Made by a program: the position numbers and the translations under genes. Below the pieces are notes generated by a model. The model was given only the letters and a program-made list of their open reading frames with translations. It did not search any database and had not been told where the DNA came from. From Acidobacteriota bacterium (GTDB taxonomy: Bacteria > Bacillota > Syntrophomonadia > Syntrophomonadales > DTU052), in the NCBI GenBank assembly GCA_050259595.1, contig JBLNAX010000068.1, forward strand, positions 3,905 to 67,904: a DNA stretch of 64,000 nt. The letters run 5' to 3'. How positions within the stretch are numbered: position 1 is the first letter of the stretch; every line of letters starts with the position of its first letter. Below are positions 47,012-63,901 of the stretch, in pieces.

Positions 47012-50000
47012 ATGAGTAGATTAAAGTTTAGGGGAATTGCCATATTGCTGGTTGCATTGATGATGGTATGCACCTGCACTAGTGATTACTTTAGCATTGT
47101 TAGGTCAATAAGCTCAGTATTAATGGCAGATGAGTCGACTCCACCCGATATTGTGCCTGATACTCTGGCGCCATCATCGCCAACTAATTTGACTATTGTT
47201 TCTCAAACATATGACTCTGTATCCTTAACATGGAATGCATCGACCGACGATTCAGGAGTTGTTGGATATATCGTTTATAAAAACGGAATGGAATATGGAG
47301 TAGCAACTGAGACAAACTATACCGATAATGGCTTATCCCCTGCCAATAACTATACCTATAGTGTAAAAGCACTTGACCAGTACGGTAATCTATCCGACGC
47401 CAGCAATGAAGTCTTAATACAAATACCGGAGCAGCCGGTTACCCCGCCAGCTGTTGCTCTTTCCGCACCCTCCAATTTAAGTATAACCTCACAAACATAT
47501 GATTCAGTGTCTTTGTTCTGGTCTGCCTCTACAGGTGGAACAGGTGTCGTTACATATGTTGTATATCGCAATGACGAGCAGATCAGCACAACAAACGATA
47601 CTGCTTATTCAGACAGTGGTTTGGTCTCTGGAACAAGTTATGTTTACTGCGTAAAGGCGGTCGACGCAACTGGGACAGAATCTGAGGCTAGCAACCAAGT
47701 GACCTGGAGTGATCAAAACAACCAGTCGCCTGGCGGGAATGATTCTAACTCGGGTGGTGCCGGTGGCGGGGGCGGAACGATAAGCCCAAATGGGTTAACT
47801 TCCCCAGTAAATCTTGCGGTCTATGAACAAACGAGTAGTTCTGTAACACTGACCTGGGATGCTGCAACTGGGACAGTCAACTATGTAGTATACCGGGATG
47901 GAAATGAAATAGGGACAGTTATCAATAACGCCTATACAGACAGCGGTTTAACAGTTGGGACTACATACAAGTACATTGTCAAAGCCGTCGATGAGGCTGG
48001 AAATGTTTCGCAAGTCAGCAATGAGGTGACCGTACAGATACCTGCGATTGAAACCGTAACGCCGCCATCAAACCTACAAGCGGTCGTTAATTCGTTTAAT
48101 TCTGTTAGCCTGAGTTGGACGGCTCCAAGCAGTGAGAATATTGTCGCATATGTCGTATACCGAAATGGTGAATCAATAACTACTGTAATAGGAACAGCTT
48201 ATGTCGACACGAAGTTGCCAGTGGCAACTACATATTCATATACAGTCAAAGCCGTGGACACTGACGGTAAAATTTCGCTAGGAAGCAATGAAGCATTTGT
48301 AACTCTTCCGGCTCTGCAGATAAAAAAAGTGCCCTTAGCAGCCGGGGATTCACACAGCCTGATAGTGAAGAGTGACGGCAAAGTGTGGTCATGGGGAAGC
48401 AATGGGGGTGGTCAGCTGGGGTCAGGTACCGCACAATCCACTATTCCAGTCAAAGTATTGGACTTGGTGGGAATTCAAGCGGTTTCTGGCGGCTATTATC
48501 ACAGCTTGGCTCTGGATAGTAACGGTTGGGTTTGGGCCTGGGGTGCAAATAGCAGTGGAGAGTTGGGGATCGGGTCTGAACTAGACAGCTCCAAACCTGA
48601 AAAGGTTCAGAACCTGGAAGGTATCATAGCGATTGAGGCAGGCAATTCGTACAGCTTGGCTTTGAAAAATGACGGCACTGTATGGGCATGGGGCTCAAAT
48701 TATAACGGTATATTCGGTAATAATGAATTAGATGAAAGCAATGTGCCAGTTCAAATTAATGGATTGGCTGGGGTTGTAGCAATTGCAGCCGGACAAAGCC
48801 ACTGCCTGGCTCTCATGAATGATGGCACGGTTTGGGGATGGGGATCGAATTCTGAAGGCCAACTTGCAGATAACAATGATGGTCAACCCGCTAGAATTTC
48901 TAATCTTTCGGGAATAACAGCAATTGCTGCAGGGGGATATCATAGCCTGGCGTTGGCTAGTAATGGTGTTGTTTGGTCATGGGGAAACAATGCCAGCGGA
49001 CAATTGGGAATTGGAATGCCGCCTTACTCAGCATATCAACCTACCGCAATGAATATTTCGGGGATAAAAGCTATAGCAGCAGGTGAAGAGTTTAGCCTTG
49101 CCCTTAAAGACAATGGGTCAGTGGTAAGTTTTGGTGCTAACTGGGGCGGTCAACTGGGAAATGATTCGACATACCAGTGGCAGACTTATGGGACAGTATC
49201 TCAAATCAATAATGTGACATCTATAGCATGTGGTGACACCCACGGACTTGCTGTGGAAAGCAGTGGCAAAGTTTGGGCTTGGGGCTGGAATAGTAATGGT
49301 CAATTGGGCAATGGTACTACCACACAAAGCATTGTCCCGGTCACTCTTGTGGACTCCCAACCCCCTACCGCTCCCAAGAATTTAGCGATGACGAACATGA
49401 CGGAATCATCTTTAACACTTGTATGGGAAGAATCCGATGATTTCTTTGGTGTAACTGGCTATGATATTTATCGTAATGGAACCAAAATAGCCAGCACCAG
49501 CTCAACCGGTTATGTTGACACATCAATCAATAAAGACTCTATTTATTCATACACAGTCAAAGCATTTGATGCAGCGGGCAATTATTCTTCTGCCAGCAAT
49601 GTTGCATCAAATGATGTCATGCCGCCGTCTGCACCTACAAACTTGACGGTTCTGGACGTGACCGGTTCCTTGGTGTCTCTGTCGTGGACTGTCAGCACTG
49701 ACAATGGAGCAGTGACAGGATACAAGATATTACGTAACGGAATCGAAATCGATTCATCAGCAACCAACAGTTACATAGATAACAATGTTTTAGCTGGAGA
49801 GACTTACGTTTATTGTGTAAAAGCCTTTGATGCAGCAAGTAACCTGTCTGATTCCAGCAATGAGGTTTCAGTTACCACTGCAGCACTCAACATCAACAAA
49901 GTTTATCTGTCGGCGGGAGGAAACCAGAGCGCCTGGCTGAAAAATAACGGTAGATTATTTATCTGGGGTAGTAATGTAAACGATCTTGATTATTCTGCAG

Positions 50001-53000
50001 GGGATCTTACAATTCCCACAGAATTGCCGATCGATAATGTGGCAGCAGTAGCCGACGGCAGTAATCATATCGTCTACTTAAAAAATAATGGTTCGGTATG
50101 GGTATCAGGTGCCAACTGGGATGGCCAATTAGGAAAACCTGGTGCGGGTGAATCAAGTCCCATTCAGGTACCTGGGGTAGGTGGAATAATAGCAGTCGCA
50201 TCTAACAACAACCATACCTTGGCCCTTAGAGCAACTGGTAAGGTATGCGCCTGGGGTAATAATAGTTATGGTCAGTGTGGAACTGGCGATACCTCCAGTC
50301 CCAGTCTGCCTGCCGATGTAAAGAACCTAACTGATGTTATTAGTATTGCTTGTGGTGAAAGTTTTAGTATTGCTCTTAAAAGTAACGGTGAAGTCGTGGC
50401 CTGGGGCAGAAACGACTATGGTCAGTTGGGCAATGGTACTACTGCACCCAGCTATACCCCGGTCAACGTAAAAACCTCGACCGGCAATTTAACTGGAGTA
50501 ATAGCCATAGCAGCAGGCAGCAAGCATGCTCTGGCTCTGCTGGCCAATGGGACAGTATATGCATGGGGATATAATTACTACTTCCAATTAGGATATAGTG
50601 CCTACAATTACAGTGCACGTGCTCAACAAGTAAGCGGTCTTACAGGTGTGACGGCAATTGCAGCTGGCTACTATCATAGCCTGGCCTTAAAGAGCAACGG
50701 AGAAGTCTGGGGCTGGGGCAGAAACATTGATGGTCAGTTGGGCACTGGCTCCACGTCATGGAATAGCGCACTGGTAAAAGTCAAGGACCTGTCCGGTGTA
50801 ATCGCTATTGCCGCAGGGAACAGCCACAGTTTAGGGCTTAGAAGCGATGAAAAGGTATTTGCATGGGGATATAATGGTTATGGTCAGCTTGGAAACGGCA
50901 CCAAGAGCCCCATCAGCTATCCGGTTCCTGTCGGGGATAGCCAGCCACCAGCAGCTCCTGGTAATTTGGTGGTAAACTCCACGTCTACGACTTCCAGTTT
51001 GAAATGGGATGCTGCACAGGACAATGTGGGTGTTATAGGCTATGAGGTATATCGAAACGGCGAGAAGATTGCTACAGTAAATACTACGATCTATCAGGAC
51101 AATGAGCTGACACCCGAAGGTAATTATGAATACTCTGTTAAAGCTTTTGATGCCGCCGGAAATATTTCGGCTTTTAGTAATTTAGCTGTACGTGATTATG
51201 AGGCTCCCACAGCACCAGGCAATTTAGTTTTTAATAATGCAGACTTTACATCGGTATCAATTAGCTGGGATGCCGCCACAGATAATATGGGGGTTAAAGG
51301 CTATAAAATATATCGTGATGGTGTCGAGGCTGGATCTTCGATTTCGACCACATATACAGATACTGGTTTGATTCCTGGAAAATCATATACATATATCGTT
51401 AAAGCCTTTGACGCCGGCGAAAACTTATCTTCTGCCAGCAATGAGCTTACTTTATCCACTAGTGCCGACCTAGAAAAACCGAGTAAGCCGACCAATCTGA
51501 ATATTTACTTTTACAATACTCAAGCTAAAATATATTGGTCTGAAGCAACAGATAATGTTGGAGTTGTCGGTTATGAAGTATATAAGAATGGCTTGAAGAT
51601 TGCCACTGTTATCGATAATCAATATTACGACAATGCTGCATCCGGTGACAGCTATACGGTTTTCGCATGTGATGCTGCTGGCAATTATTCAGAATCCAGT
51701 GATTCATATCTGTTTATCGATGATTTTGGTAACAAAAAAGAAGATGCAGCAAGCATTGATCTGGGGCAGGAAAAGGTTGGATACATTAACTATAGCGGTG
51801 ATAATGATTATGTCAAATTTACCACTACCGTTGCCGGAAGTTATCTTGTAGATGCTTCAACTGTACCGCCTGGAGGTTATCTGACTGTAGAATTGCTGAG
51901 CAGCAGCGGCAGTCATCTCGCGAGCGATACCTTTAATGAGGAAAGCCCGGCCACACTGACTAGGTCACTCCAAGGGAATAGCACGTACTATGTGTGCATA
52001 TATGAAACGCCAATGTACGGCTTTGACGATCAATCAGAGCCACCTTCTCCCCCGGCTAACTGCCGGGGCGGATATAGGATTAAAATCTATCCGGCGGATA
52101 ACGAACCACCTACTCCGCCCGCCAATCTAACAGCGGTTGATAAGACCGCAACTAGTCTGACATTAACCTGGGATGCCGCAACGGATAATATCGGGGTGGC
52201 AGGCTACAGCATTTATAGGGACGGATTGAAAATTGGTGATACATCAAATCTAAGCTATGCGGTTAATGGGCTTTTACCCAACAATACTTATATATTTGCT
52301 GTGAAGGCTTACGATCTAAAAGGCAATTTCTCAATAGAAAGCACGGTTCAGGTATCTACAGAGACAGACACAGAACCGCCAACCGTTCCTGAGAATCTTG
52401 TGGTCACCGAGAAAAATGGACGCAATACTACGCTGAGCTGGACTGCGTCAACCGATAACAAGGGCTTGGCAGGATACGAGCTTTACCGCAATGGCACCAA
52501 GCTGGTTACTGTAACAGATACCGTTTACAGTGATAATGGGTTGATCAATGGAACATATTCTTATACGGTTAAAGCGATCGACCTGGCTGGTAACACATCC
52601 GATTCAAGCAACCAGGTCGAGGTGATTGTTAATGAAGACATTACACCGCCGACCGCTCCCCAGAATCTGACTGCTTCCCAAATCAAATTAAAGAGTATCT
52701 ACATAACCTGGCAGGCTTCTACTGATAATGTAGGGGTTAAATGGTATTATGTGTATCGTGATGGAAAATTCATTAACGGTGGAACCGGTGCTTTTACCGG
52801 TGCTGAAGATTTTCAAGTAACACCGGGAGCTACTTACCAGTACTATGTACGAGCTGTTGACGCTGCTGGCAATATGTCAGAGCCCAGCAACACCATAACC
52901 GTCACATCACTTCAGGATACTGCAGCCCCCACTGCTCCAACCAATCTTAGAGTAATCGCCAGAGGGGCGGAATCCGTCAGCCTCAAATGGAACACTTCCA

Positions 53001-56000
53001 CTGACGATGTGGGAGTGTTGGAATACAGCATATTCCGAAATGATATTAAGGTTGGGACTTCAACGGGCCTGGAGTTTTATGATACTGGATTCGATAGAAC
53101 AGCGGTAAATACTTATTACGTTAAGGCATTGGATGCAGCGGCTAATCTATCACAACCCAGTAATTCAGTTATTCATGAGATAATTCCACCTTCTATTCCC
53201 CAGAATCTGAGCTTGGTTTCTAAGACCAGCCGGAATATCAATATCACCTGGGACGCTTCCACAGATAATGTTACGGTTAGCGGTTATGAAGTGTTCCGGG
53301 ATGGTACATCCATAGCCCGGACGGTATATACCAGTTTCTCTGATAACGGACTTATTCCGGAACAGACCTACACTTATACGGTAAGATCCTTTGATAGCGT
53401 AGGCAATATATCGAATACTAGCAGTGCCCTAAGTGTGATCACCGATCCTGATACCATTCCGCCGACTATTCCACAGGCTTTGAGTCTGGTGGGATACACC
53501 GGTAGTACCGTTTCTATTAAATGGAACCCATCGACTGATGACTACCAGATGGCCAAATACGAGGTGTTCCGCAACGGCACATCGGTGGGACAGACTGTGT
53601 ATTCTCATTTTACCGATACCGTATTGAATGTCGGCACCGATTATATTTATACCGTAAAAGCAATTGACTCGGCGGGCAATGTTTCGGACGCCAGCAGTAC
53701 GCTGACGGCCGCTCCGCAACTGCCCCAGATTACACGGGTGGAACCGCCCAATAACACTTTGATCGGTGGGTTAAGCAGCCGCAATCTGAGAGTCTATTAT
53801 AAGGATACGGCGGATACCGGAGAGACACTGGGAGCCGAGTATTCCCTGGACAATGCCGTTTGGAATAATACAGGCTTTGCTTTCAACGGTCCTTATCAAT
53901 ACGATGGATCAACTCAATACTTCAACTGCACTTGGTCTTCCCCGCTTACGGCCAGTGGTAAATACACTGTACGATTCACATTAACAGACAGCACCGCGCA
54001 CAGTGTGCAAAAGGTCGTCTACTATCAGATTGATAATGAAGCGCCAATGGTACCCAAGAATCTTACCGCCCAGCCTATAGTAGGCGGCGGAGGTATTCAG
54101 CTGGCCTGGGATCCGCCTATTGATACCGATATCAGCTATTATCAGATCTACCGTTCCGTTTATGCGGAAGAAGGTTATACACCGTTATACAGAATGAGCG
54201 CTGGTATTTGCTCATACACCGATCGTTCGGCCCTGCCTGGGACCAAGTGCTACTACAAGGTTTCAGCGGTTGATGTCAACGGGCAGGAAAGTGCAGCTTC
54301 CGCCAGCGCTAATGCCATTGCACCTTCAGATACCGTATGTCCGGTTGTGACCAGCCTTTATCCGGCCTTTGGTTCAGGGTTGGGCTTAAACCCCGTCTTT
54401 ACGGTAAATTCCCACGATAATTTAGGAATTAAATCAACCAAGCTCCAATATTCACTGAATGATGGAGTAGACTGGACTGATATTGGGAGCACTAATGGTT
54501 ATGCTCAGTTCCCATGGAGCACTCAGGGACTCAGCGGCCAAGTCAAGATTAGAGCCATAGTTACCGACTACTCAGACAATGTCAGTGATGGTACACCTGT
54601 TTATTCGTACTTCATAGATCATGACGGGCCGGCTAAGGTGACAGGACTGGCTGGTACACCTAAGGCGACCGGTGTTCTGCTAAAGTGGCAGGATGTGCCG
54701 GACAATGATTTAGCCTACTTCCAGGTGGAAAAGGCGACTACTCAAGATGGTCAGTTTGTGGTCTACCAAACCACTTCCAGATACCTGGGTATGAATGTTA
54801 CCGGACTAACTGCAAATACCGATTACTGGTTCCGGGTGGTAGCTTTTGATGTCCGCGGCAATGCCGGGACATACTCGGATGTTGTGCAGGTTCGCACTAC
54901 AGAAGATACTGATTCTCCGGTAGTCACAGCCATCAGACCTGGTGCGGGTTATTATGCGGGTGCGATTCCTCTCAGTGCCGATGCCTGGGATGACGTGGGA
55001 GTGACCTCGGTAAAACTCCAGTATTCGCAGGACAAGGTACAGTGGAATGATATAGAAACCATAACCCCCGCAGAAGTTGCCGCTAGGGTAACAGTTAACT
55101 ATAACTGGGATACCACAACCATGGCGGAAGGTTCGTACTTTGTCCGCGCCATTGCGGTGGATACCAACCAGCACGACAACTCTACTCAGAATTCGTGGGT
55201 GGAATACCGCGTAAACCGCAGTGCGCCTACAGATGCTCCGCAAGGACTTACACTGACGGAAGCAGCGGGCAATCTGCGTCTGATATGGCAAAACATTGAT
55301 GATCCTGGACTCGCTGGCTACAAGGTATACCGGGCGCAGGGCATTAATGGACCTTTTAACCAGATATCTTCGGCAGCGTTGATTGGCTACTATGACTATA
55401 ACGTGCAGCCCGGTATTACATATTACTACAAAGTTGCTGCTTACAATGCTGTGGGTCTGGTAGGTCCCGACAGTGAGATTGTCAGCGGTAAGCTGCTGGA
55501 CGACAATGAAGCGCCAAAGATAATTAGTGTGGTTCCGGCTAGCGGTGATACCCTGCCGGGCAATCCGGAAATCAGTGCCCTGGTAAGTGACAACTATAAA
55601 GTAGCCACGGTTGAGCTTAAGTACAAATCAGCCACTGAGGGCGATGACTGGCATTCGATCGCCCAGCGTAGTGTCAACAAATCCAGTGAAGTAGTGGCTT
55701 TCACCTGGAATGCCGATGGACTAAGCGATGGGAGCTATACTCTGAGGCTGGTTGTCGCCGATGCTGGTGGACGGGTAACTGAATCCAGCGACTTGAACTA
55801 TAACCTGAAGGTCTACAAGGTCAGCCCGCCCGTCTTGACGGCGGTGGCTGCCGACTGGAAGGTTAACCTCTCATGGACCGGAGAGAAAGGCGAATACTTT
55901 AAAGAATATCGCATCTATAGGTCAACTGTAACCGGTCAGTTCTACAAGCTAATTAAAACAACCACAGACAACTCTTGTTGTGATGATGTGATTTCGCCAG

Positions 56001-59000
56001 AGAGAGAGTATTTCTATGTGGTAGATTTGATCGATTGGTACGGCAACGCCAGCCGCAGTGCGGAAGTAGCGGTCAGACCACTGGCCAATGACCCATATGC
56101 GCCGACTGCGGAAGCTGATGAAGATCAGATTACTAATGTCGGAATGGACACTCAGTTTGATGGGTCATTGTCACGCGATAATGATGAGATTAGCCGCTAT
56201 ATTTGGGCATTTGGTGATGGAAGTCAGGTGGAGGAAAGCACTCCGGTTCACCGGTATTCGACACCCGGAACTTACGCAGTATCGCTTACTGTATACGACT
56301 CTGCAGGAAACAGTTCAATCGATAGCTGCCTGGTTACTGTTCGACCGGAAGCGGACCTGGGTTATCTGGACATCTATGTCGTTGACGCAGCCAATGGCCT
56401 GCCGCTGGTCGGAGCCAGTGTGGTTGTCGAAGGGGCCAGCGGAACCAGACGTAAAGTGCTCTCCGGAGAAAATGGATATATACATACCACGGTAGAGGTT
56501 GGTTCCTGTAAAGTATATGCCTATATTAAGGATTACCTGCCCGAGCAGTTCAACACTACCATTACCAAAGGCGAAACCACCAATGTCACAGCTAAGATAG
56601 GGAAAGGCCAACTGGTACAGGGCGAAATTACGGTTAAGCGTATGACCCTTGAGGAAATCAGGGATGCCGGTATTGATGTTTATGCACCCGAAAACCAGTA
56701 TGTATATCAATACAATATAAACCTGGCAGTTGATAATACATGTACATACACGTTACAGGCTAATGCCAGGGGTCAAGTCATAAGATGGACAGGCCCGTCA
56801 AATTATACTCCGAGTGTGCTTCCGCATACGGGGCACCCTGGAGTAGCGCCGACCTTATTTATTATGAAGACCCCGCCGCATGGAACAGCTCTATGGCTGA
56901 AGGAGTTCTTTGAAGTGAGCCTGGTTGTTCAAAATATGGCTGATCCCCAGTTTGTTATTGAACAATCTTCAGCCACCCTGGAACTGCCGGCTGGTCTCTC
57001 CCTGGCACCCACCAGAGATGTTCAAAGCTTTATTATTGACATGGGCTCACTGGCGGGTGGCGAAGAAAAGCAGGCCAAGTGGATAATTCGCGGCGATCAA
57101 AAGGGTGACAATTACCACGTCTCGGCTAATTTCAAGGGTGTTCTGCAGCCGTTCGGTGATAATGTCGAAGCGCGTTTTCAAAACCAGGAGCCGTTCAGAG
57201 TCTGGGGCGGGGACGCAATTAACATGGTGGTTTATGCCGAGGATTCCGCAGTCAAAGGTCGGCCATATAAGATAGCAGTTTGTTTTGACAATGTTTCAGA
57301 TCATGATGTCTATAATATTACCAATTCACTTCAACTGCCGGAAGCTAGCTGGATTCCGCAATGGTCATGGGCAAATACCATCGAAACACTTAAACCGGGC
57401 AAAAGAGCTGTTTGGTATTACATATTCCTGCCCAAATTTACAGGACGGATCAAGGAAGACCCATTCTCCAATATTGCTTATATGGGTGGTCAATCGGTAA
57501 AATCTCGTTTGGTTTTAGTTCGTGCTTCAAATCGAGATGCCCAAAATGTCATTACAATTGCCGATCCTATAGATCCTGTAACCGGTGCATTCAAATACGA
57601 TATGAGTCTGCTAAGTTTGCAGGGTGTAAGGCCGTTGGAATTTAAAGTGAATTATGATTCCCAATCCAAAACTATAGGTACTATGGGATTAGGATGGGAC
57701 CACGGTTTCACAACCAGATTAGAGCAGACAGGGGACGGGAACCTGATAATACACTGGCCGCAGAACCAATGGAGCGCATTTATCAAGGATACGGACAACA
57801 CTTATAAATGTATTGAACCGTCATTGAAGTTTGACCTGATTGTTAAGAATCCTGATGGGAGCTATACCCTAACCCGTAAGGATTCATCCGTCTACGAATT
57901 TAATGCCCAAGGCCAGTTTACATCCGAGAAGGATGTGAGCGGAGGTGCGCTCCTCTACACTTACGAAGAGAAACAGCTAAAGTCTATCACTGAACCGGTT
58001 TCTGGCTGCAGCTTGACCTTTACATACAACGAACAGGGTCTGCTCTCCCAGGTAACCGATAACTCAGATCGTTCCGTGTCCCTACAATATGACGTCAACA
58101 AGAATCTAACTGTAATTACCGGACTCGGAAATGCCACCACCACCTTCGAATATGATGAGTGTGGTCGCATAGTCAAGGAAATTGATGCTCAGGGACAGCC
58201 GGTGATAATCAATACCTACGATTTAGATGGCCGGGTAACTGCCCAGACAGACCGTGAAGGCAGAGTGACTAACTTAAGTTATGATACCAGCAGTGATACC
58301 GCCAACACTGTCAACTCCACTGACAGGAATGGGCAAGCCAAAACATATAGTTTCGACTTTAATGGAAACTTGGTCAGTCAGCAGGATGGAATAAATCAAG
58401 GTATCAACTTTACATACGATGACGAAGGCAACTGCATCAAGGATACCGATGCAGAAGGTAGTTCAACAGACTATACATACGACAGCCGGGGCAATCTGCT
58501 GACTATCAGCGATGGCGGCTCGATTACCAGTACCATGACTTACGATGAGCGGGATAACCTGCTCACAGATATCGATGCAGCAGGACAGACAACCATTTAT
58601 ACATATAACTCTGATAATACAAGGGCTACGAAAACTGATCCATCGGGAAATACAACTTCATACACCTATAATGAAAATAAGCAGGTAACATCAATTACTG
58701 GACCCGATGGCGGAGTAAAAAGCTTCACCTATGAAAATGGGCTGACTAAGACTATTACAGATGAGACCGGCCGAACGACTACCTACACATATAATCAGAT
58801 TGGCAAGCCAGTCTCAATAACCAATGCTTCGGGTCAGACCAGTACCATGGAATACGATATTCGCGGTAATCTGATCAGTATGACCAATCCCATGGGTAAT
58901 ACCGTTTCTTACACTTACGATGCCATGGGCTGGAAGACATCCGAGACAGACGCTCGTGGAAATACTACAACATTTGAATATGACAGCTATGGTAAAGTAA

Positions 59001-61924
59001 CTGCTATAAAAGATGCGCTGGGCAACATCACGCGCAATGAATACGATGCCGAGGGAAGGCTTCTTAAAACTATAGATGCCAGGGGGAATTGTACTACTCT
59101 TACTTATGATGCCAGGGGGCGCCTGGAGACCACCACAAATGCCCTGGGTTTTTCAATTCGTTACTATTATGATGCTCTGGACCATATTACTGGCATAGAA
59201 GATGCCTTGGGACGCCGGGTTTTTACCCAATCATATGACGGTGACGGTAACCCGGTCACCCTAACCGACTCACTTGGCAATACAACCACCAATCAATACG
59301 ATGAACTAGGCGGCCTTACTCAACAAATAGATGCTACCGGCCACCTCAAATCGTATGGGTACGATCAATTGGGAAATCTAACCTCTAGCTATCAAGCCGG
59401 TGTTTTGGCTTCACGCACTTATGACTCCAGCGGCCGCATATTAACCAGTACCGATCCCAATGACAATAAAACTACCTTTACCTATGATCTGGCTGGGCGG
59501 CTGCTGACTCAAACCAGTGCAGCCGGTGGTGTGATTAGCTATACATATAACCAGGCTGGATTAGTGGCCACCAAGACCAATGCCCGCGGACAGATGACTA
59601 CTTATTCGTACAATGCGGCTGGGCTGTTGACATCTACCACCGATCAGAATGGTACAACAACTTATTCCTATGATGCCAATGGCAATGTCCTTACCAAATC
59701 TGATTCTACCGGAACCATGACCCGGGAGTATGACGTTCTGAACAGGGTGACCAAATACACGGATGTCAGAGGCAACATCATTCGTTACCAGTACGATGCG
59801 GTGGGCAATCTGACCGCCCTCACCTATCCAGATGGCAAACAGGTGCATTATGAATATGATGCCTGCAATCAGTTGATCAGGGTAACGGATTGGGCTAATA
59901 GAGTGACCTCGTATGAGTATGATCCGAATGGTATGCTTGCCAGTACAACACGTCCTGATGGCTCGGTAGAGACCCGCAGCTATGACGCCATGGGCCAGTT
60001 GACGAATATGAAAGATACTGATAAAAACGGCCAGTCGCTCAATGAATACAGTTACGCTTACGATGCCGAAGGAGCTATAACTACAGAGACGGACTCAGCT
60101 CCAGAGGTCAATTACACCATGCCCGAAAAGACCATGTCATATGGACCGGATAACCGTTTGATCACCTATAATGAACAAACCATGACCTATGATGCAGATG
60201 GCAATATGACCAACGGGCCGTTAAAGGGTCAAATGGCCAACTATACTTTTGATTGCCGGAACCGGCTTATAAGCGTAGGAAATACCAGCTATACTTACGA
60301 TGCTGAGGATCATCGCATTACGGTTGCTGAAAATGGTAGTCAGACAGATTATGTTGTCAATCCCAGCAATCTAGATCAGATATTGATGAGGGTCGGTCCA
60401 GATGGACAAAAAACATATTATGTATATGGCTTAGGGCTGCTGGGTCAGGAAAATCCGGACAGCACATACCAGACATATCATTATGATTACCGGGGCAGCA
60501 CAACGGCTATCACCGACCAGGATGGGGCAGTTACTGACCGCTGCCAATACGGCCCATACGGGGAACTGGTCAGCCGTGAAGGAACCACCGATACACCTTT
60601 CCTTTATAATGGCAAGTTCGGAGTTATGACCGACAATAGTGGACTGTATTACATGCAGGCACGATATTATAACCCGGAGATAATGCGCTTTATCAATGCT
60701 GATGTGGTACTGGGCGAAATCGACGATCCAGCCTCTATGAACCGTTACGCTTATGCCAACGGTCAGCCTATTAACAATACCGATCCCTTTGGCCTGTGTT
60801 CTAAGGAAGCTAATGATTTATGGAACCTGTTCAAGCTTTATAAAGAGGGGGAATGGGATGGCTTCTGGCGTTCGTTCAAAGATATGCTTGTAGGTTTATA
60901 TGACCTGAGTAAATACGCCATTAAGGAGGCCTTCACGTCGACAGATATGTACGGCTATCCTGTTTATCCCTGGGAACCGTCTTTTTACATATCCAAGATA
61001 TTGAACGCGATTAATGTCGGCTATGATATATACAAGTGTGTCGATACGGAAGAGGAAAAACGTATCTTATGGGCTAATATTACGAAAGTATGTGACATGG
61101 CCTGGGACAAGTATATGAAATCTACCAAGGAACAGAGGGCATATTGGGCGGGTTTTGTTACTGGATATCTGGAGGGCACACTAACATCAATTGTTATAAC
61201 TGCTGGCGTTGGAGCTGAAGTCAAGGCAGCGTCTCTAGCTGGAAATGTAGCTCGCTTAGGCAGAGGAGGCACCTGGTTCCGCAGAATTATTAGCGCTGTA
61301 AAGAAAGGATTGAAGAAAGGCGGAGCCGCAGGTGAGGCAAGTAGAATTTTTGAGCTTAATCTCGGTAAGTTTTTTAAATTTGTTAGTAAGCTTGATGCCG
61401 AGAGTTGGGGGAATAGAGTCTTTAGAAATTGGGAGGCAGGGCTCACCTCAGTTGAAAGACAAGCGATCTACGATTATACAACAGATGCATATTACCAGAA
61501 TATAAATAATGTGCTTAGGGGTATCGAAACTGACTTTGCTCCGGGCAATGCTGCCAGGGTAGCGGAGATAACCAATGCATTAGATAAGGCACTGATAACG
61601 GATGACATTGTAGTTTATCGAGGGGTCACAAGGGAGGCTCTAGGTGCCTACAAGAGTTTACCCAATGATAAACTTGTTGGTAAACTACTAGAAGAGAAAG
61701 CTTTTTTGAGTACAAGTTTAATTCCCGAAGGAGCTTTTGATACGCCAATAACTTACATAATAAAAGTTCCGAAGGGGATTAAGGGTGCATTTATTGAAAA
61801 TATAAGTATGTTCGGTTCTCAAGAAGTAGAATTATTGATTCAAAGAGGACAGAGAATGATAATTCAACAAGTTGTTGAAAATGGATCAAATTTAATGTTG
61901 GTAATGGAAATAGTTCCGTGGTAA
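47012..61924 (+). CDS. giant RHS/YD-repeat polymorphic toxin (4970 aa) with FN3, RCC1, PPC, PKD and Ig-like domains and a C-terminal ADP-ribosyltransferase
   Basis: N-terminal signal peptide, then more than 20 FN3 units (LxWxASTDNVGVxGYxxYRNG...YxYxVKAxDxAGNxS). Two RCC1 blocks (GxxHSLALxxxGxVWxWGxNxxGQLG). A PPC-like segment (GDNDYVKFT) and a PKD domain (WAFGDGS...HRYSTPGTYAVSLTVYDSAGN). The RHS shell runs from DPIDPVTGAF (about 57560), with dozens of YD repeats and the core end YYMQARYYNPEIMRFINADV...NRYAYANGQPINNTDPFGL. Confidence 0.92.
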   Translation: MSRLKFRGIAILLVALMMVCTCTSDYFSIVRSISSVLMADESTPPDIVPDTLAPSSPTNLTIVSQTYDSVSLTWNASTDDSGVVGYIVYKNGMEYGVATETNYTDNGLSPANNYTYSVKALDQYGNLSDASNEVLIQIPEQPVTPPAVALSAPSNLSITSQTYDSVSLFWSASTGGTGVVTYVVYRNDEQISTTNDTAYSDSGLVSGTSYVYCVKAVDATGTESEASNQVTWSDQNNQSPGGNDSNSGGAGGGGGTISPNGLTSPVNLAVYEQTSSSVTLTWDAATGTVNYVVYRDGNEIGTVINNAYTDSGLTVGTTYKYIVKAVDEAGNVSQVSNEVTVQIPAIETVTPPSNLQAVVNSFNSVSLSWTAPSSENIVAYVVYRNGESITTVIGTAYVDTKLPVATTYSYTVKAVDTDGKISLGSNEAFVTLPALQIKKVPLAAGDSHSLIVKSDGKVWSWGSNGGGQLGSGTAQSTIPVKVLDLVGIQAVSGGYYHSLALDSNGWVWAWGANSSGELGIGSELDSSKPEKVQNLEGIIAIEAGNSYSLALKNDGTVWAWGSNYNGIFGNNELDESNVPVQINGLAGVVAIAAGQSHCLALMNDGTVWGWGSNSEGQLADNNDGQPARISNLSGITAIAAGGYHSLALASNGVVWSWGNNASGQLGIGMPPYSAYQPTAMNISGIKAIAAGEEFSLALKDNGSVVSFGANWGGQLGNDSTYQWQTYGTVSQINNVTSIACGDTHGLAVESSGKVWAWGWNSNGQLGNGTTTQSIVPVTLVDSQPPTAPKNLAMTNMTESSLTLVWEESDDFFGVTGYDIYRNGTKIASTSSTGYVDTSINKDSIYSYTVKAFDAAGNYSSASNVASNDVMPPSAPTNLTVLDVTGSLVSLSWTVSTDNGAVTGYKILRNGIEIDSSATNSYIDNNVLAGETYVYCVKAFDAASNLSDSSNEVSVTTAALNINKVYLSAGGNQSAWLKNNGRLFIWGSNVNDLDYSAGDLTIPTELPIDNVAAVADGSNHIVYLKNNGSVWVSGANWDGQLGKPGAGESSPIQVPGVGGIIAVASNNNHTLALRATGKVCAWGNNSYGQCGTGDTSSPSLPADVKNLTDVISIACGESFSIALKSNGEVVAWGRNDYGQLGNGTTAPSYTPVNVKTSTGNLTGVIAIAAGSKHALALLANGTVYAWGYNYYFQLGYSAYNYSARAQQVSGLTGVTAIAAGYYHSLALKSNGEVWGWGRNIDGQLGTGSTSWNSALVKVKDLSGVIAIAAGNSHSLGLRSDEKVFAWGYNGYGQLGNGTKSPISYPVPVGDSQPPAAPGNLVVNSTSTTSSLKWDAAQDNVGVIGYEVYRNGEKIATVNTTIYQDNELTPEGNYEYSVKAFDAAGNISAFSNLAVRDYEAPTAPGNLVFNNADFTSVSISWDAATDNMGVKGYKIYRDGVEAGSSISTTYTDTGLIPGKSYTYIVKAFDAGENLSSASNELTLSTSADLEKPSKPTNLNIYFYNTQAKIYWSEATDNVGVVGYEVYKNGLKIATVIDNQYYDNAASGDSYTVFACDAAGNYSESSDSYLFIDDFGNKKEDAASIDLGQEKVGYINYSGDNDYVKFTTTVAGSYLVDASTVPPGGYLTVELLSSSGSHLASDTFNEESPATLTRSLQGNSTYYVCIYETPMYGFDDQSEPPSPPANCRGGYRIKIYPADNEPPTPPANLTAVDKTATSLTLTWDAATDNIGVAGYSIYRDGLKIGDTSNLSYAVNGLLPNNTYIFAVKAYDLKGNFSIESTVQVSTETDTEPPTVPENLVVTEKNGRNTTLSWTASTDNKGLAGYELYRNGTKLVTVTDTVYSDNGLINGTYSYTVKAIDLAGNTSDSSNQVEVIVNEDITPPTAPQNLTASQIKLKSIYITWQASTDNVGVKWYYVYRDGKFINGGTGAFTGAEDFQVTPGATYQYYVRAVDAAGNMSEPSNTITVTSLQDTAAPTAPTNLRVIARGAESVSLKWNTSTDDVGVLEYSIFRNDIKVGTSTGLEFYDTGFDRTAVNTYYVKALDAAANLSQPSNSVIHEIIPPSIPQNLSLVSKTSRNINITWDASTDNVTVSGYEVFRDGTSIARTVYTSFSDNGLIPEQTYTYTVRSFDSVGNISNTSSALSVITDPDTIPPTIPQALSLVGYTGSTVSIKWNPSTDDYQMAKYEVFRNGTSVGQTVYSHFTDTVLNVGTDYIYTVKAIDSAGNVSDASSTLTAAPQLPQITRVEPPNNTLIGGLSSRNLRVYYKDTADTGETLGAEYSLDNAVWNNTGFAFNGPYQYDGSTQYFNCTWSSPLTASGKYTVRFTLTDSTAHSVQKVVYYQIDNEAPMVPKNLTAQPIVGGGGIQLAWDPPIDTDISYYQIYRSVYAEEGYTPLYRMSAGICSYTDRSALPGTKCYYKVSAVDVNGQESAASASANAIAPSDTVCPVVTSLYPAFGSGLGLNPVFTVNSHDNLGIKSTKLQYSLNDGVDWTDIGSTNGYAQFPWSTQGLSGQVKIRAIVTDYSDNVSDGTPVYSYFIDHDGPAKVTGLAGTPKATGVLLKWQDVPDNDLAYFQVEKATTQDGQFVVYQTTSRYLGMNVTGLTANTDYWFRVVAFDVRGNAGTYSDVVQVRTTEDTDSPVVTAIRPGAGYYAGAIPLSADAWDDVGVTSVKLQYSQDKVQWNDIETITPAEVAARVTVNYNWDTTTMAEGSYFVRAIAVDTNQHDNSTQNSWVEYRVNRSAPTDAPQGLTLTEAAGNLRLIWQNIDDPGLAGYKVYRAQGINGPFNQISSAALIGYYDYNVQPGITYYYKVAAYNAVGLVGPDSEIVSGKLLDDNEAPKIISVVPASGDTLPGNPEISALVSDNYKVATVELKYKSATEGDDWHSIAQRSVNKSSEVVAFTWNADGLSDGSYTLRLVVADAGGRVTESSDLNYNLKVYKVSPPVLTAVAADWKVNLSWTGEKGEYFKEYRIYRSTVTGQFYKLIKTTTDNSCCDDVISPEREYFYVVDLIDWYGNASRSAEVAVRPLANDPYAPTAEADEDQITNVGMDTQFDGSLSRDNDEISRYIWAFGDGSQVEESTPVHRYSTPGTYAVSLTVYDSAGNSSIDSCLVTVRPEADLGYLDIYVVDAANGLPLVGASVVVEGASGTRRKVLSGENGYIHTTVEVGSCKVYAYIKDYLPEQFNTTITKGETTNVTAKIGKGQLVQGEITVKRMTLEEIRDAGIDVYAPENQYVYQYNINLAVDNTCTYTLQANARGQVIRWTGPSNYTPSVLPHTGHPGVAPTLFIMKTPPHGTALWLKEFFEVSLVVQNMADPQFVIEQSSATLELPAGLSLAPTRDVQSFIIDMGSLAGGEEKQAKWIIRGDQKGDNYHVSANFKGVLQPFGDNVEARFQNQEPFRVWGGDAINMVVYAEDSAVKGRPYKIAVCFDNVSDHDVYNITNSLQLPEASWIPQWSWANTIETLKPGKRAVWYYIFLPKFTGRIKEDPFSNIAYMGGQSVKSRLVLVRASNRDAQNVITIADPIDPVTGAFKYDMSLLSLQGVRPLEFKVNYDSQSKTIGTMGLGWDHGFTTRLEQTGDGNLIIHWPQNQWSAFIKDTDNTYKCIEPSLKFDLIVKNPDGSYTLTRKDSSVYEFNAQGQFTSEKDVSGGALLYTYEEKQLKSITEPVSGCSLTFTYNEQGLLSQVTDNSDRSVSLQYDVNKNLTVITGLGNATTTFEYDECGRIVKEIDAQGQPVIINTYDLDGRVTAQTDREGRVTNLSYDTSSDTANTVNSTDRNGQAKTYSFDFNGNLVSQQDGINQGINFTYDDEGNCIKDTDAEGSSTDYTYDSRGNLLTISDGGSITSTMTYDERDNLLTDIDAAGQTTIYTYNSDNTRATKTDPSGNTTSYTYNENKQVTSITGPDGGVKSFTYENGLTKTITDETGRTTTYTYNQIGKPVSITNASGQTSTMEYDIRGNLISMTNPMGNTVSYTYDAMGWKTSETDARGNTTTFEYDSYGKVTAIKDALGNITRNEYDAEGRLLKTIDARGNCTTLTYDARGRLETTTNALGFSIRYYYDALDHITGIEDALGRRVFTQSYDGDGNPVTLTDSLGNTTTNQYDELGGLTQQIDATGHLKSYGYDQLGNLTSSYQAGVLASRTYDSSGRILTSTDPNDNKTTFTYDLAGRLLTQTSAAGGVISYTYNQAGLVATKTNARGQMTTYSYNAAGLLTSTTDQNGTTTYSYDANGNVLTKSDSTGTMTREYDVLNRVTKYTDVRGNIIRYQYDAVGNLTALTYPDGKQVHYEYDACNQLIRVTDWANRVTSYEYDPNGMLASTTRPDGSVETRSYDAMGQLTNMKDTDKNGQSLNEYSYAYDAEGAITTETDSAPEVNYTMPEKTMSYGPDNRLITYNEQTMTYDADGNMTNGPLKGQMANYTFDCRNRLISVGNTSYTYDAEDHRITVAENGSQTDYVVNPSNLDQILMRVGPDGQKTYYVYGLGLLGQENPDSTYQTYHYDYRGSTTAITDQDGAVTDRCQYGPYGELVSREGTTDTPFLYNGKFGVMTDNSGLYYMQARYYNPEIMRFINADVVLGEIDDPASMNRYAYANGQPINNTDPFGLCSKEANDLWNLFKLYKEGEWDGFWRSFKDMLVGLYDLSKYAIKEAFTSTDMYGYPVYPWEPSFYISKILNAINVGYDIYKCVDTEEEKRILWANITKVCDMAWDKYMKSTKEQRAYWAGFVTGYLEGTLTSIVITAGVGAEVKAASLAGNVARLGRGGTWFRRIISAVKKGLKKGGAAGEASRIFELNLGKFFKFVSKLDAESWGNRVFRNWEAGLTSVERQAIYDYTTDAYYQNINNVLRGIETDFAPGNAARVAEITNALDKALITDDIVVYRGVTREALGAYKSLPNDKLVGKLLEEKAFLSTSLIPEGAFDTPITYIIKVPKGIKGAFIENISMFGSQEVELLIQRGQRMIIQQVVENGSNLMLVMEIVPW
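60797..61921 (+). other. C-terminal toxin cassette of the RHS protein: linker with hydrophobic segment + R-S-E ADP-ribosyltransferase domain (about 61454-61921)
   Basis: It begins directly after DPFGL. The ART triad is VVYRGV (Arg), AFLSTSL (STS) and GSQEVELL (ExE), preceded by YDYTTDAYYQNINNVLRG, as in C3/VIP2-type toxins. Confidence 0.75.
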
Positions 61925-61940
61925 GGAGGAATGAAGGAAT

Positions 61941-62147
61941 ATGGTTAGGCCAAGTAAGCCAAGTAGAGTGGACAGATTCAATTACACTAGGCCTGAGGAA
62001 ATAATAATAATAACTTTGCAATGTGAGAGCTGTAAAAACAAGTTGGATGACCCCATGATATGCACTGAATATGTGGAGAGAAAGCCAAATGGTGTTTTGA
62101 GAGCTGAATCCGATTGTCCAAAGTATAGTCCAATTGAACAGAGGTAA
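61941..62147 (+). CDS. small Cys-rich hypothetical protein
   Basis: A 68-aa ORF 12 nt after AAGGAGG. The spacing CESC...C...DCPKY suggests a zinc-ribbon-like fold. It sits between the toxin and the ARH gene. Confidence 0.4.
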   Translation: MVRPSKPSRVDRFNYTRPEEIIIITLQCESCKNKLDDPMICTEYVERKPNGVLRAESDCPKYSPIEQR

Positions 62148-62150
62148 TTT

Positions 62151-63089
62151 GTGAGTAACCGCGTTTTGGAAGGCTTCTTAGGCTTATGTGTAGGCGATGC
62201 ATTAGGGGTCCCCGTCGAATTTGTTTCCAGGGACCAGTTGTTGAAATTGCCAGTAACTAACATGACGGGATTTGGTACCCACAATCAACCGCCGGGAACT
62301 TGGTCTGATGATAGTTCATTGTCTTTCTGTTTGGCAGAGAGTCTATGTAATGGCTTTGACATTGTAGATATTTCGCAAAGATTTGTTCGATGGTATGTTG
62401 ACGGTTATTGGACTCCGCATGGAATTGTGTTTGATATTGGAAACGCAACATTACAGGCTATTAATAGAATTATATCAGGATGTAAGCCTGAAGACGCGGG
62501 TGGTAAGACCGATGGTGACAACGGAAATGGTTCATTGATGCGAATATTACCCTTAGCTTACTATTTATTAAGATTCGATGATATTGAGACCCGAATGAAG
62601 ATCGTTCATGATGTTTCTGCGATCACCCATGGTCATATTCGATCAAAGATGGCATGTGTCCTGTTCATTGAATTGGCTATCAGTATACTAAAAGGTAAAA
62701 ATAAAATCGAAGCTTATAATGATGTCATTAAGCAGTTTGAATCAATTTACAGTTATGATTTGTATACAACAGAATTAATACACTTTAAGAATATAATCTC
62801 CGGAAAAATTGATAATCTAGAAAGGTACAAGATTTCATCTTCGGGGTATGTAATCCATACACTTGAGGCTAGTATCTGGTGTCTACTAAATAGTGGCGAT
62901 TATAAAGAAGCTGTTTTAAAGGCTGTTAACCTTGGAGATGACACGGATACTACTGCTGCTGTTACTGGCGGACTAGCTGGAATATATTATGGAATGGGTT
63001 CTATTCCAAAAGAATGGATAGATGTTCTAGCGAGAAAAGATGATATTTTTGCATTATGTGAGCGGTTTGCAAAGAATATGAATACGTGA
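62151..63089 (+). CDS. ADP-ribosylglycohydrolase (ARH/DraG family), candidate immunity protein
   Basis: GLCVGDALGVPVEF, WSDDSSL, GNGSLMRILP and LGDDTDTTAAVTGGLAGIYYG are the conserved ARH motifs. Confidence 0.88.
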   Translation: MSNRVLEGFLGLCVGDALGVPVEFVSRDQLLKLPVTNMTGFGTHNQPPGTWSDDSSLSFCLAESLCNGFDIVDISQRFVRWYVDGYWTPHGIVFDIGNATLQAINRIISGCKPEDAGGKTDGDNGNGSLMRILPLAYYLLRFDDIETRMKIVHDVSAITHGHIRSKMACVLFIELAISILKGKNKIEAYNDVIKQFESIYSYDLYTTELIHFKNIISGKIDNLERYKISSSGYVIHTLEASIWCLLNSGDYKEAVLKAVNLGDDTDTTAAVTGGLAGIYYGMGSIPKEWIDVLARKDDIFALCERFAKNMNT

Positions 63090-63146
63090 AAAGTCATGTA
63101 GCTCACCCTTGGCGGTGTACTATAGTCTCAAGGAGGCTCTGACAAG

Positions 63147-63593
63147 GTGTCAACTGGTAAGATTGCAAGTGATAATACAATCCAAATCTTAAAAGCGGCT
63201 GGATGGTATGAAGGACGCAAGATTGATATTGAAGTTTTTGAATCAAATCTAAACAAATTAGGATATGAAGTGTTTCAACCGGTTAAACAGTTCTTACAGG
63301 AATTTGGCATGTTGAAGTTTCAGGATGCTCTTGAACAAGTTCATGATACATCAAAAATATTTATTGAATACTTCAAACATGGCAAGTTCTCCATTGAAGA
63401 GAATTATTGTGGTGAAAGATTAGTTCCGGTAGGAACTCTGTCAGATGGAGAGTTGCTTTTATTTGTATCGGAAAGTGGAAAAGTTTATTGTAGCACGGGC
63501 AAATTAGGCGATAATCCATGGGAGGCATGGGAATGTTTAATTAATAATACAAGCTTCAAGAGTTGGGGAACTTTGCAGAGAGACAGAGGCTAA
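63147..63593 (+). CDS. SUKH-family (SUKH-3-like) immunity protein
   Basis: ILKAAGWYEGRKIDIEVFESNLNKLGYEVFQPVKQFLQEFGML ... LVPVGTLSDGELLLFVSESGKVY matches the SUKH-3 pattern as I recall it. Confidence 0.6.
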   Translation: MSTGKIASDNTIQILKAAGWYEGRKIDIEVFESNLNKLGYEVFQPVKQFLQEFGMLKFQDALEQVHDTSKIFIEYFKHGKFSIEENYCGERLVPVGTLSDGELLLFVSESGKVYCSTGKLGDNPWEAWECLINNTSFKSWGTLQRDRG

Positions 63594-63609
63594 ACTGGAC
63601 GGTGATTAA

Positions 63610-63852
63610 GTGGCTACTTACGTGTTACTAATTAAGGATTTCGAGGATGATGAAAAAGTTGTATATCGTTTTGGCCCAGATAAAGAAAGAATGGGGAAGA
63701 TTCAGTTAAACAAAAGTGACGGCGAGTATTTAGAAATTGAACCAGTACCAGAAACCGATACCACGTTCTATTTCAATCGAGCAGTATCAAAACTACTGAA
63801 ACATTTGAAAAGTGGCGAGGGATTCCCTGACCGAACTCATTTTGCATCTTGA
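63610..63852 (+). CDS. hypothetical small protein (possible additional immunity gene)
   Basis: An 80-aa ORF with a GTG start after GGACGGTGA. No motif was recognised. Confidence 0.4.
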   Translation: MATYVLLIKDFEDDEKVVYRFGPDKERMGKIQLNKSDGEYLEIEPVPETDTTFYFNRAVSKLLKHLKSGEGFPDRTHFAS

Positions 63853-63901
63853 TTTTGTTGTGAAGTGGATAAGGCGATCAGCTTAGGGATGGGTGGATTA
63901 A

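Follow-up and report, generated by a model that had tools for sequence, protein, structure and literature searches.

A predicted Sec-exported giant RHS toxin with an ADP-ribosyltransferase cargo, and an upstream YD-tag gene as its candidate partner

How Sec-exported RHS/WapA toxins are held on the producing cell and gain access to their targets has been called unresolved (PMC12704120). Here, we analyzed a stretch of 64,000 nucleotides (nt) from contig JBLNAX010000068.1 of GenBank assembly GCA_050259595.1 (positions 3,905 to 67,904; hereafter, the window), which encodes an RHS protein of 4970 amino acids (aa), P0001. We find that P0001 is probably a Sec-exported RHS polymorphic toxin of the WapA/type II secretion system (T2SS) class, independent of the type VI and type VII secretion systems (T6SS and T7SS), with an adaptor step that we infer from conserved gene pairing. 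The locus is predicted, with high confidence, to be a functional RHS toxin with an ADP-ribosyltransferase (ART) cargo and a hydrolase as its immunity protein. Taken as an RHS toxin, P0001 adds a member to a class already known; the new element is a stand-alone YD tag carried on a second gene instead of a wall-binding module in cis. That gene lies directly upstream, was missed by the original prediction made from this sequence, and bears directly on how P0001 is displayed. Tag proteins of this kind are a small secreted family whose sole shared feature is the stand-alone YD tag and which occurs beside RHS genes far above chance.

The toxin gene, its product and its immunity protein

The P0001 gene is an unbroken open reading frame (ORF) of 4970 codons, with 0 internal stops, and specifies a product of 537.6 kDa. 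To obtain the domain order, we scanned P0001, both whole and in eight segments, with Pfam and NCBIfam and added an FN3 profile made from its own FN3 units. The gene and its parts are as follows.

47012-61924, + strand: gene of the giant RHS polymorphic toxin P0001 (ORF translation and domain scans)
47012-47128, + strand: signal peptide region, aa 1-39, with n-region MSRLKFRG, h-region IAILLVALMMVCTC and putative cleavage after VLMA (direct sequence reading, from which the cleavage site is also deduced)
47144-53719, + strand: distal stalk, aa 45-2236 (domain scans; collinear from aa 272 onward with the non-toxin giant P0003 at 41% identity)
53720-57562, + strand: conserved pre-RHS block, aa 2237-3517, with four Ig-like/FN3 pairs, PKD, a CarboxypepD_reg-like unit and a tandem Ig-like module (scans; shared with relatives)
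57563-60796, + strand: RHS cocoon, aa 3518-4595, 119 kDa, with DUF6531 plug, YD-repeat shell and Rhs-associated core up to DPFGL (Pfam, NCBIfam, AlphaFold2 [AF2], Foldseek)
60797-61921, + strand: cargo, aa 4596-4970, 42 kDa, with an orphan linker of ~195 aa and an R-S-E ART (Pfam, PDB matches, HMMER)

The N terminus, read by eye, has a positively charged n-region, a 14-residue h-region and a long c-region, and it is the sole hydrophobic 19-mer window of the protein, bar one within a beta-sandwich. Pfam and NCBIfam returned no PAAR, prePAAR, VgrG, LXG or WXG hit in P0001 and no CWB or LysM hit across its 4970 aa.

The shell begins with the plug domain DUF6531 (PF20148; aa 3518-3586, E 1.6e-12), which starts at D3518-P3519 within the motif DPIDPVTG (aa 3518-3525, nt 57563-57586), and it closes with PINNTDPFGL (aa 4586-4595), of which DPFGL occupies aa 4591-4595 (nt 60782-60796). 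The RHS repeats matched PF05593 (E 2e-113) in 19 stretches when the whole protein was scanned with hmmscan, and in 15 and 10 stretches in two overlapping segments; TIGR01643 matched at E 8e-87. The Rhs core TIGR03696 was found at aa 4513-4595 (66.4 bits; cut-off, 32.5), followed by a C-terminal region of 375 aa. An AF2 model of aa 3505-4600 is a continuous strip of ~95 beta-strands (pLDDT 73.7), and Foldseek aligned it end to end (~1090 columns) with the Rhs cocoons 8qjc, 8qja, 7q97 and 7pq5 (E 1e-59 to 2e-54), the next matches being teneurins and TcB-TcC. By homology, P0001 would form a closed cocoon enclosing its cargo. From plug to DPFGL the shell spans 1078 residues, against 1086 in the solved Photorhabdus Rhs1 (PMC8636562). 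A shell left unfinished for the tag to complete was considered and rejected, its length being canonical next to that of Rhs1; the shells of tag-positive relatives are even longer, at ~1280-1300 residues.

From its motifs, the aspartyl-protease core is predicted to be autoproteolytic. In Photorhabdus Rhs1, the D288N substitution abolished N-terminal cleavage at D288-P289 (PMC8636562), and the Rhs1 fragment of Streptococcus suis WapA begins PINLNTGNF (PMC12704120); D3518-P3519 plausibly corresponds, in sequence, to both sites. P0001 resembles the T6SS Rhs effectors (RhsA, 7q97; Rhs1-Tre23, 7pq5; Tse15, 8uxt; Salmonella bongori/Advenella, 8qjc/8qja) in its shell of ~1080 residues, its D-P plug, its DPxGL core and a toxin that would likewise be encapsulated, and the toxin of Rhs1 is also an ART. 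Unlike these effectors, P0001 is without PAAR, prePAAR, VgrG or an Eag-chaperone-binding region; in their place are a putative signal peptide and a giant stalk.

The cargo consists of the linker, which contains one amphipathic/hydrophobic helix, and an ADPrib_exo_Tox domain (PF03496; aa 4796-4957, nt 61397-61882; E 3e-30, 105.5 bits against a cut-off of 23.4). Its R-S-E triad comprises R4870 (in YRG), STS at 4900-4902 and EVE at 4938-4940. The ExE form of R-S-E ARTs is arginine-specific, and the cargo is accordingly predicted to be an R-S-E (ExE) arginine ADP-ribosyltransferase. Among solved relatives, Lmo0066 comes closest (chain B of 8za7, E 1e-32); others are of the Vip2, C3, iota, CDT and Certhrax types, and Tre1 was matched as well (6dre_B, E 1.7e-5). 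When the 375-aa cargo was compared exhaustively by HMMER with 1.84 billion representative proteins, 2226 relatives were recovered. The listed matches all cover the ART part, and nearly all of them start near cassette residue 175 or beyond it. None of the listed hits extends into the first ~85 linker residues (aa 4596-4680), and very few reach the following ~90. Eight ART carriers that we scanned comprised two PT-TG proteins, one TPS/FHA protein (CdiA-like), one MuF-linked, one peptidoglycan-binding and three ART-only proteins, a spread that looks like the expected signature of a shuffled toxin cassette.

Two ORFs downstream of the toxin gene lies the gene of its predicted immunity protein.

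62151-63089, + strand: ADP-ribosylglycohydrolase (ARH) of 312 aa, probable enzymatic immunity protein (PF03747; PDB 8za7_A, 6dre_A)

The ARH matches PF03747 over its full length (profile positions 2-287 of 287; E 1.4e-79, 268 bits). Among solved proteins, Lmo0067 is its best relative (8za7_A, E 5e-92), and Tri1 is also matched (6dre_A, E 1.9e-43); the best solved relatives of cargo and ARH are the two chains of a single PDB entry, 8za7. The enzyme keeps the motifs GDALG, SDDS and GDDTDT, and these Asp-containing motifs are taken to be metal-binding. A strict association between Imm-ARG immunity proteins and R-S-E ARTs has been described (Zhang et al. 2012, PMC3482391), and the mechanism of Tre1/Tri1 has been reviewed (PMC8120803). 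Like Tre1/Tri1 of Serratia proteamaculans (6dre/6drh) and Lmo0066/Lmo0067 of Listeria monocytogenes (8za7), the locus joins an R-S-E ART to a DraG-like ARH; unlike Tre1, the toxin would be delivered by a Sec-exported RHS cocoon. The biology of such pairs is known, and what differs here is the delivery route: this is one more case of enzymatic immunity, with Sec/RHS rather than the T6SS as the carrier.

Several details weigh against the toxin assignment. The c-region of the signal peptide is unusually long. The AF2 cocoon did not close (pTM 0.48, TM-scores 0.3-0.48), the TM-scores being low because a shallow alignment left the shell open. The 42-kDa cargo compares with 9-20 kDa typical of T6SS Rhs toxins (PMC8636562). 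With the NCBIfam profile of Tri1 (NF041672), the ARH scored 197 bits, below the cut-off of 490, and it matched profile positions 72-355, the occluding N-terminal extension of Tri1 being absent; on these scores it appears to be a DraG-like ADP-ribosylhydrolase and not a Tri1 equivalog.

Ahead of the shell stands a stalk of 3470 residues with ~27 beta-sandwich domains and two RCC1 propellers. It contains 19 FN3 units, of which 15 are tandem units and 4 alternate with Ig-like units, and the first domain behind the signal peptide is an FN3. The order is 4 FN3, RCC1, 2 FN3, RCC1, 3 FN3, a PPC-type unit and 6 FN3, and then four Ig-like/FN3 pairs, PKD (aa 3030-3102), the CarboxypepD_reg-like unit and a module of ~320 aa that leads into DUF6531. 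The propellers (PF25390, E 2.5e-189) lie at about aa 445-775, with 7 blade motifs, and at about aa 975-1303, with 6 blade motifs detected. The module at aa 3196-3517 (322 aa) was modeled with AF2, and its confident stretch (model residues 96-250, pLDDT >90) is a beta-sandwich; Foldseek of this module gave generic tandem Ig-like matches only (transglutaminase C-terminal barrels, RbmA) and 0 enzymatic or receptor-specific folds. An Ig-like domain spans 3.5-4 nm, and on this basis the stalk, if extended, would reach on the order of 100 nm, enough to clear the wall and an S-layer.

Most of the original prediction for this gene stood, although it named neither the toxin type nor the enzymatic immunity gene. 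One continuous ORF of 4970 aa is confirmed across 14.9 kb, the proposed Sec signal peptide is supported by a signal-peptide-type N terminus on sequence reading, and the claim of a complete RHS shell with a C-terminal toxin agrees with the plug, YD repeats, TIGR03696 core and 375-aa cargo; the DPxxPVTG plug at about 57560 and the DPFGL motif at 60782-60796 are both where they had been placed. The window had been said to hold no T6SS or T7SS genes, and there are none among the window ORFs that we scanned. In the list of stalk domains, FN3, the two RCC1 blocks, the Ig-like units and PKD were recovered. The other two entries fared less well. The PPC-type unit (aa 1571-1690, 120 aa) is weakly assigned and is the weakest of our domain calls: its own copy has no Pfam hit, a profile made with homologous segments matched the ColH collagen-binding domain 3jqw at E 1.5e-5, and PF04151 was matched by 2 of 7 homologous segments. 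The carboxypeptidase-regulatory-like unit (~aa 3122-3195) scored 28.8 bits, under the Pfam cut-off of 32.3.

The upstream partner gene and its YD tag

Immediately ahead of the toxin gene, on the same strand and ending 36 nt before it, is a gene for a second large protein with a signal peptide.

44423-46975, + strand: partner gene, P0127, 850 aa, with signal peptide, one double-YD tag, Big_2, Big_2, LamG_3, Big_2, LamG_3 and Big_2 (domain scans, tag hidden Markov model [HMM])

The tag (aa 27-66, nt 44501-44620; KTYTYDSQHRIKTVTYDNGMTIEYTYDAAGNIISVKQ) stands directly behind the signal peptide. An HMM built from three tags scored 73-83 bits on tags (82.4 on that of P0127) versus at most 33 on any shell repeat. 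The same tag heads a neighboring small secreted protein at four other giant-RHS loci (L017, L018, L022 and L024); it is followed in L017 by an S/T/Q-rich linker and a C-terminal transmembrane (TM) helix and in the other three by He_PIG and a dockerin. By eye, the two LamG_3-containing halves of P0127 itself look almost the same along much of their length, which would point to an internal duplication of recent date.

To count such genes, we used a degenerate DNA pattern of 87 nt built on the V-x-Y-x-x-G variant of the tag, which in all loci then examined matches only tags (that of P0127 at 44510) and no shell repeat. A scan of JGI metagenome contigs with this pattern returned at least 120 stretches. 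Of the 121 matches listed, 106 are N-terminal, no further in than residue 110, in ORFs where two YD repeats at most were detected; 0 lie inside a multi-repeat RHS ORF. An RHS ORF in these loci was defined by at least three repeats with a purpose-built repeat HMM, and the share of listed tag loci that have one climbs with the length of flanking sequence.

Total flank under 2 kb: RHS ORF at 0 of 28 tag loci
Total flank 2-4 kb: RHS ORF at 8 of 26 tag loci
Total flank 4-8 kb: RHS ORF at 18 of 25 tag loci
Total flank 8-20 kb: RHS ORF at 17 of 27 tag loci

Among the matches listed, 52 loci have 4 kb of flank or more, and 35 of these contain an RHS ORF. The listed pairs have a median gap of ~100 nt and share a strand in 33 of 43 cases, and control DNA of 291 kb contained 0 ORFs with at least two repeats. 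The pairing of tag and RHS gene is strong but not obligatory.

What follows the tag varies. We scanned ten tag proteins, mostly picked from the longest of those next to RHS genes, and found binding or anchoring modules in every one: cadherin-like/Big_9 arrays, FN3, Laminin_G_3, TSP3 (one with a PEP-CTERM-like tail), FG-GAP, Calx-beta, Lcl_C and a weak dockerin. Many others consist of a signal peptide, the tag and a short S/T/P tail only. For the dockerin-type tag, a region-restricted word-index search gave 7 close relatives. In one JGI locus, L047, two tandem tag mini-genes (2-202 and 909-1157) encode a signal peptide, a YD tag and some 20 aa of S/T-rich tail; the 8 kb downstream contain no RHS gene. 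Many minis of 70-130 aa occur among the metagenome matches. The pattern is internal or C-terminal in L063, L091 and L129 (residue 526 of 675, 346 of 897 and 762 of 798, respectively).

Scans for promoters, terminators and Rfam families around the cluster gave nothing above shuffled expectation and 0 riboswitches, and no terminator is predicted between the cluster genes. With a 36-nt gap and all genes on one strand, the co-oriented cluster is probably an operon.

The evidence for a link between tag and toxin is not all on one side. Tag genes without an RHS neighbor occur with 5-14 kb of flank (L042/L060, L047, L112 and L136), and the giant RHS loci P0034, P0044, P0051 and P0056 have no tag gene within 6-8 kb. 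Comparison of tags with the repeats of their own shells found no cognate relation: best matches are scattered, and non-cognate repeats score equally high. Further, P0127 has no recognizable wall, S-layer or membrane anchor. The best 120 homologues of its first 260 residues, dominated by Big_2 proteins, include none with an RHS repeat and are uninformative on the tag.

In the literature that we searched, we found no description of a tag-RHS pairing, only cellulosome papers with unexplained "Rhs modules" on ScaO/ScaP (PMC6780208). These scaffoldins of Acetivibrio cellulolyticus and Clostridium alkalicellulosi combine short Rhs modules with cohesin and dockerin, like the partners at L018, L022 and L024; their Rhs modules were treated as auxiliary, with no toxin link proposed, and P0127 differs from them in having Big_2 and LamG domains and no dockerin. 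The closest analogy for docking of the tag, a conceptual one, is the Tc toxin TcB-TcC (4o9x, 4igl), in which an RHS shell of two polypeptides forms one beta-strip and binding resides in a separate subunit. Unlike TcB-TcC, the second polypeptide here contributes two YD repeats (~40 aa) and not half a shell, and there is no TcA-like translocator or TcB beta-propeller.

Export, display and alternative explanations

In its overall plan, P0001 is like the WapA-type toxins (Bacillus subtilis WapA; S. suis WapA-CT1; PMC12704120). It shares with them a Sec signal, predicted in the case of P0001, and an N-terminal region outside the cell, as well as an RHS shell flanked on either side by conserved cleavage motifs, a variable toxin whose immunity gene lies downstream, and the absence of any T6SS or T7SS domain. 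Unlike WapA, it has no LysM or CWB in cis, its toxin is an ART and not a tRNase, and the gene upstream is a YD-tag partner and not a SecF-like or sortase gene. Relative to S. suis WapA, it has one shell, not two, and its N-terminal region, the 3470-aa FN3/RCC1/Ig stalk, is five times longer.

We propose that the co-oriented cluster makes the partner, the toxin, a 68-aa Cys-rich protein, the hydrolase and spare immunity proteins, and that both large proteins (P0127 and P0001) are exported by Sec. The shell would fold around the 42-kDa cargo, autoproteolysis after L4595 would free the cargo inside, and a second cut, at D3518-P3519, may separate the 119-kDa cocoon and the 372-kDa stalk. As the conserved gene pairing suggests, P0127 would dock via its tag on the RHS protein and so supply in trans the anchoring or target binding that WapA proteins carry in cis. 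Its Big_2 and LamG domains might bind carbohydrate of the producer envelope, or else of the target; LamG in cis at the N termini of T2SS toxins has been associated with cell-surface anchoring (Zhang et al., PMC3482391). In a competing bacterium, the ExE toxin would ADP-ribosylate an arginine of an essential cytoplasmic protein. The producer would be protected by the hydrolase, which would reverse the modification and probably also bind the toxin, as in Lmo0066/Lmo0067 and Tre1/Tri1.

The individual steps differ in how firmly we hold them. That the tag protein is a physical adaptor for the RHS toxin is a tentative proposal, to which we give somewhat less than an even chance. The wider idea is that Sec-exported RHS toxins are a two-component system in which a portable YD docking tag joins the cocoon, by analogy with TcB-TcC, and couples it to whatever anchoring or binding device the lineage has; this we hold to be rather less likely than not. 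In such a system, the FN3/RCC1 stalk would be a spacer that raises the cocoon past wall and S-layer, and the tag protein would determine the place at which the weapon is kept or the surface to which it adheres. The P0001 locus leaves the view of RHS toxins unchanged and offers a testable candidate for the missing display component. If the tag does dock on the cocoon, this would explain how giants without a wall-binding module are displayed, would account for the "Rhs modules" on cellulosomal scaffoldins, and would provide a simple sequence handle for finding such systems.

The same architecture could also belong to a soluble toxin that is released and not surface-displayed, its stalk and the lectin-like modules of the partner only binding targets and the partner serving as a receptor-binding subunit. 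Both P0001 and P0127 are without SLH, LysM, CWB, LPXTG, dockerin or TM segments besides the signal peptide, D3518-P3519 is a plausible N-terminal autocleavage site, and many tag proteins carry adhesin-type arrays (cadherin-like, FG-GAP, LamG), not anchors. We nevertheless think release rather unlikely, as related loci join the tag to self-anchors (C-terminal TM helix, dockerin, PEP-CTERM-like tail) and as WapA proteins stay with the cells and went undetected in supernatants (PMC12704120). Alternatively, the YD tag might be unrelated to the toxin, a generic beta-hairpin spacer or a remnant of RHS recombination, with P0127 as an independent adhesin. Its closeness to the consensus RHS repeat, its lack of specific likeness to the cognate shell, and the roughly one-third of long-flank tag genes without an RHS neighbor would all fit. 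Such a spacer or remnant does not readily account for a tag that stands alone behind a signal peptide, in a V-x-Y-x-x-G variant absent from all shell repeats examined, and that is fused to unrelated C-terminal modules in many lineages; the adjacency of 35 of 52 against 0 ORFs with at least two repeats in the 291-kb control is beyond chance, and we judge an unrelated tag distinctly unlikely.

Two further explanations concern the target and the sequence itself. The toxin could be aimed at eukaryotes, either a protist grazer or a host, with the hydrolase merely guarding against leakage: many PF03496 enzymes modify actin or Rho GTPases, the solved ART relatives include the Vip2, C3, iota and CDT families, and adhesins that bind eukaryotic surfaces also have RCC1, FN3 and PKD stalks. 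A bacterial target agrees better with the bacterial pair Lmo0066/Lmo0067 as by far the closest solved relatives, with the match to the antibacterial Tre1/Tri1, and with what lies behind the toxin gene, namely a hydrolase gene dedicated to immunity and an array in which SUKH-3 and other immunity-like genes follow. Such arrays mark inter-bacterial systems, and anti-eukaryotic effectors come without immunity genes (PMC3482391). We consider a eukaryotic target improbable. It is also conceivable that a metagenome chimera or a collapsed repeat array has faked a continuous ORF. The source contig, 80 kb long, is metagenome-derived and known from Logan and NCBI only, its looked-up proteins are all in singleton clusters, and one independent Logan contig ends inside the P0001 gene, at window position 60502. 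A run of 14.9 kb without a stop codon speaks for a genuine gene, and repeat collapse is unlikely because the FN3, RCC1 and YD repeats within the ORF are too divergent at the DNA level (60-80% identical only). P0001 is collinear with P0003 over aa 272-3478 (41% identity) and with a second, distinct relative, P0006, over aa 2138-3436 and 3640-4595 (40-44%); the two matches overlap by 1300 aa, and there is therefore no chimeric joint between the stalk and toxin halves. Over 60502-64000 and 63019-64000, the window is matched at 100% identity by two independent Logan assemblies, in which the 3' 1.4 kb of the P0001 gene and the immunity genes are exactly reproduced; the Logan contigs carry the run names SRR24085912 and SRR24085894. 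On this evidence, the assembly risk for the ORF appears low, and an artefact is very improbable indeed.

Relatives and neighboring genes

A length-restricted search (2733-8697 aa) gave 259 hits at E <= 1e-10 among 1177 scored candidates; many of these hits are RHS proteins 3000-7900 aa long whose stalks contain FN3, PKD or Ig domains. Fusions of RCC1 with RHS are P0017 (6368 aa), P0078 (3967 aa) and P0109 (3825 aa), and the genome contig L001 encodes a protein of 2100 aa with a signal peptide, two RCC1 blocks and RHS. A Sec-dependent WapA of >3100 aa (~350 kDa) has been studied in S. suis (PMC12704120). The best relatives of P0001 have 30-41% identity over 38-50% of its length, and none matches its full architecture. 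The original prediction overstated the case in calling the size and domain mix exceptional, there being hundreds of metagenome RHS or RCC1 giants of 2700-7900 aa. The combination of RCC1 and FN3 with RHS, which it had termed unusual, recurs in the RCC1-RHS fusions, and what holds of that claim is that the exact full-length architecture is unmatched.

Comparison with these proteins shows that P0001 is a mosaic, its distal stalk belonging to a family of giant FN3/RCC1 surface proteins and its shell collinear with other giant RHS toxins. The pre-RHS block (1280 residues) is common to P0003, P0006, P0011 and P0014 at 28-40% identity, and the stalk family also occurs toxin-free, in P0003 and P0004. 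At the P0003 locus (L019, 8001-20993), the relative of 4330 aa has the whole FN3/RCC1/Ig/PKD stalk (41% over ~3400 aa) and ends in FN3 and three modules of ~190 aa each that resemble carbohydrate-binding modules, in place of the RHS shell; an SLH protein is encoded just upstream. Teneurins, too, carry a YD shell at the tip of a long extracellular stalk built of repeated domains, and their C-terminal domain is derived from a toxin. Unlike P0001, they are eukaryotic type II membrane proteins whose C-terminal domain lies outside the shell, and they have neither an immunity gene nor the autoproteolytic release that is predicted for P0001.

Around the ARH gene lie two small genes of the same cluster.

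61941-62147, + strand: ORF of 68 aa with four cysteines (CESC...C...C; CxxC pattern), called as a gene on an independent Logan contig
63147-63593, + strand: SUKH-3 immunity-family protein of 148 aa, probably an orphan or spare immunity gene (PF14433, E 3.5e-25)

The 68-aa ORF sits between the toxin stop codon and the hydrolase gene; Pfam gave 0 hits for it (61941-62147), and it is a candidate for a small zinc-ribbon accessory or a second immunity factor. Logan contig L015 continues past the end of the window (equivalent to ~63902-67690) with four small ORFs, one of them a weak Imm3, and an IS200-type Y1 transposase. Further on, it has a 94-aa ORF with NCGEF...CKNC and a weak cytidine-deaminase hit that resembles the truncated tip of an orphan deaminase toxin, and then two more SUKH-3 genes. 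The array behind P0001 is a typical orphan toxin/immunity tail.

Elsewhere in the window, three tandem surface-protein genes (613-12768, + strand), two with triple SLH, also encode Big_2 and Calx-beta domains, and their Big_2 arrays resemble those of P0127. The original description of the host as an S-layer-bearing Gram-positive has its sole basis in SLH-domain proteins in the window. At 38966-39394 (- strand), within 37938-39394 (- strand), is a gene for an Imm26-family immunity protein (E 1e-11). Directly downstream of it is an ORF of 347 aa without a Pfam hit, and the two are perhaps a second toxin/immunity pair in a mobile island.

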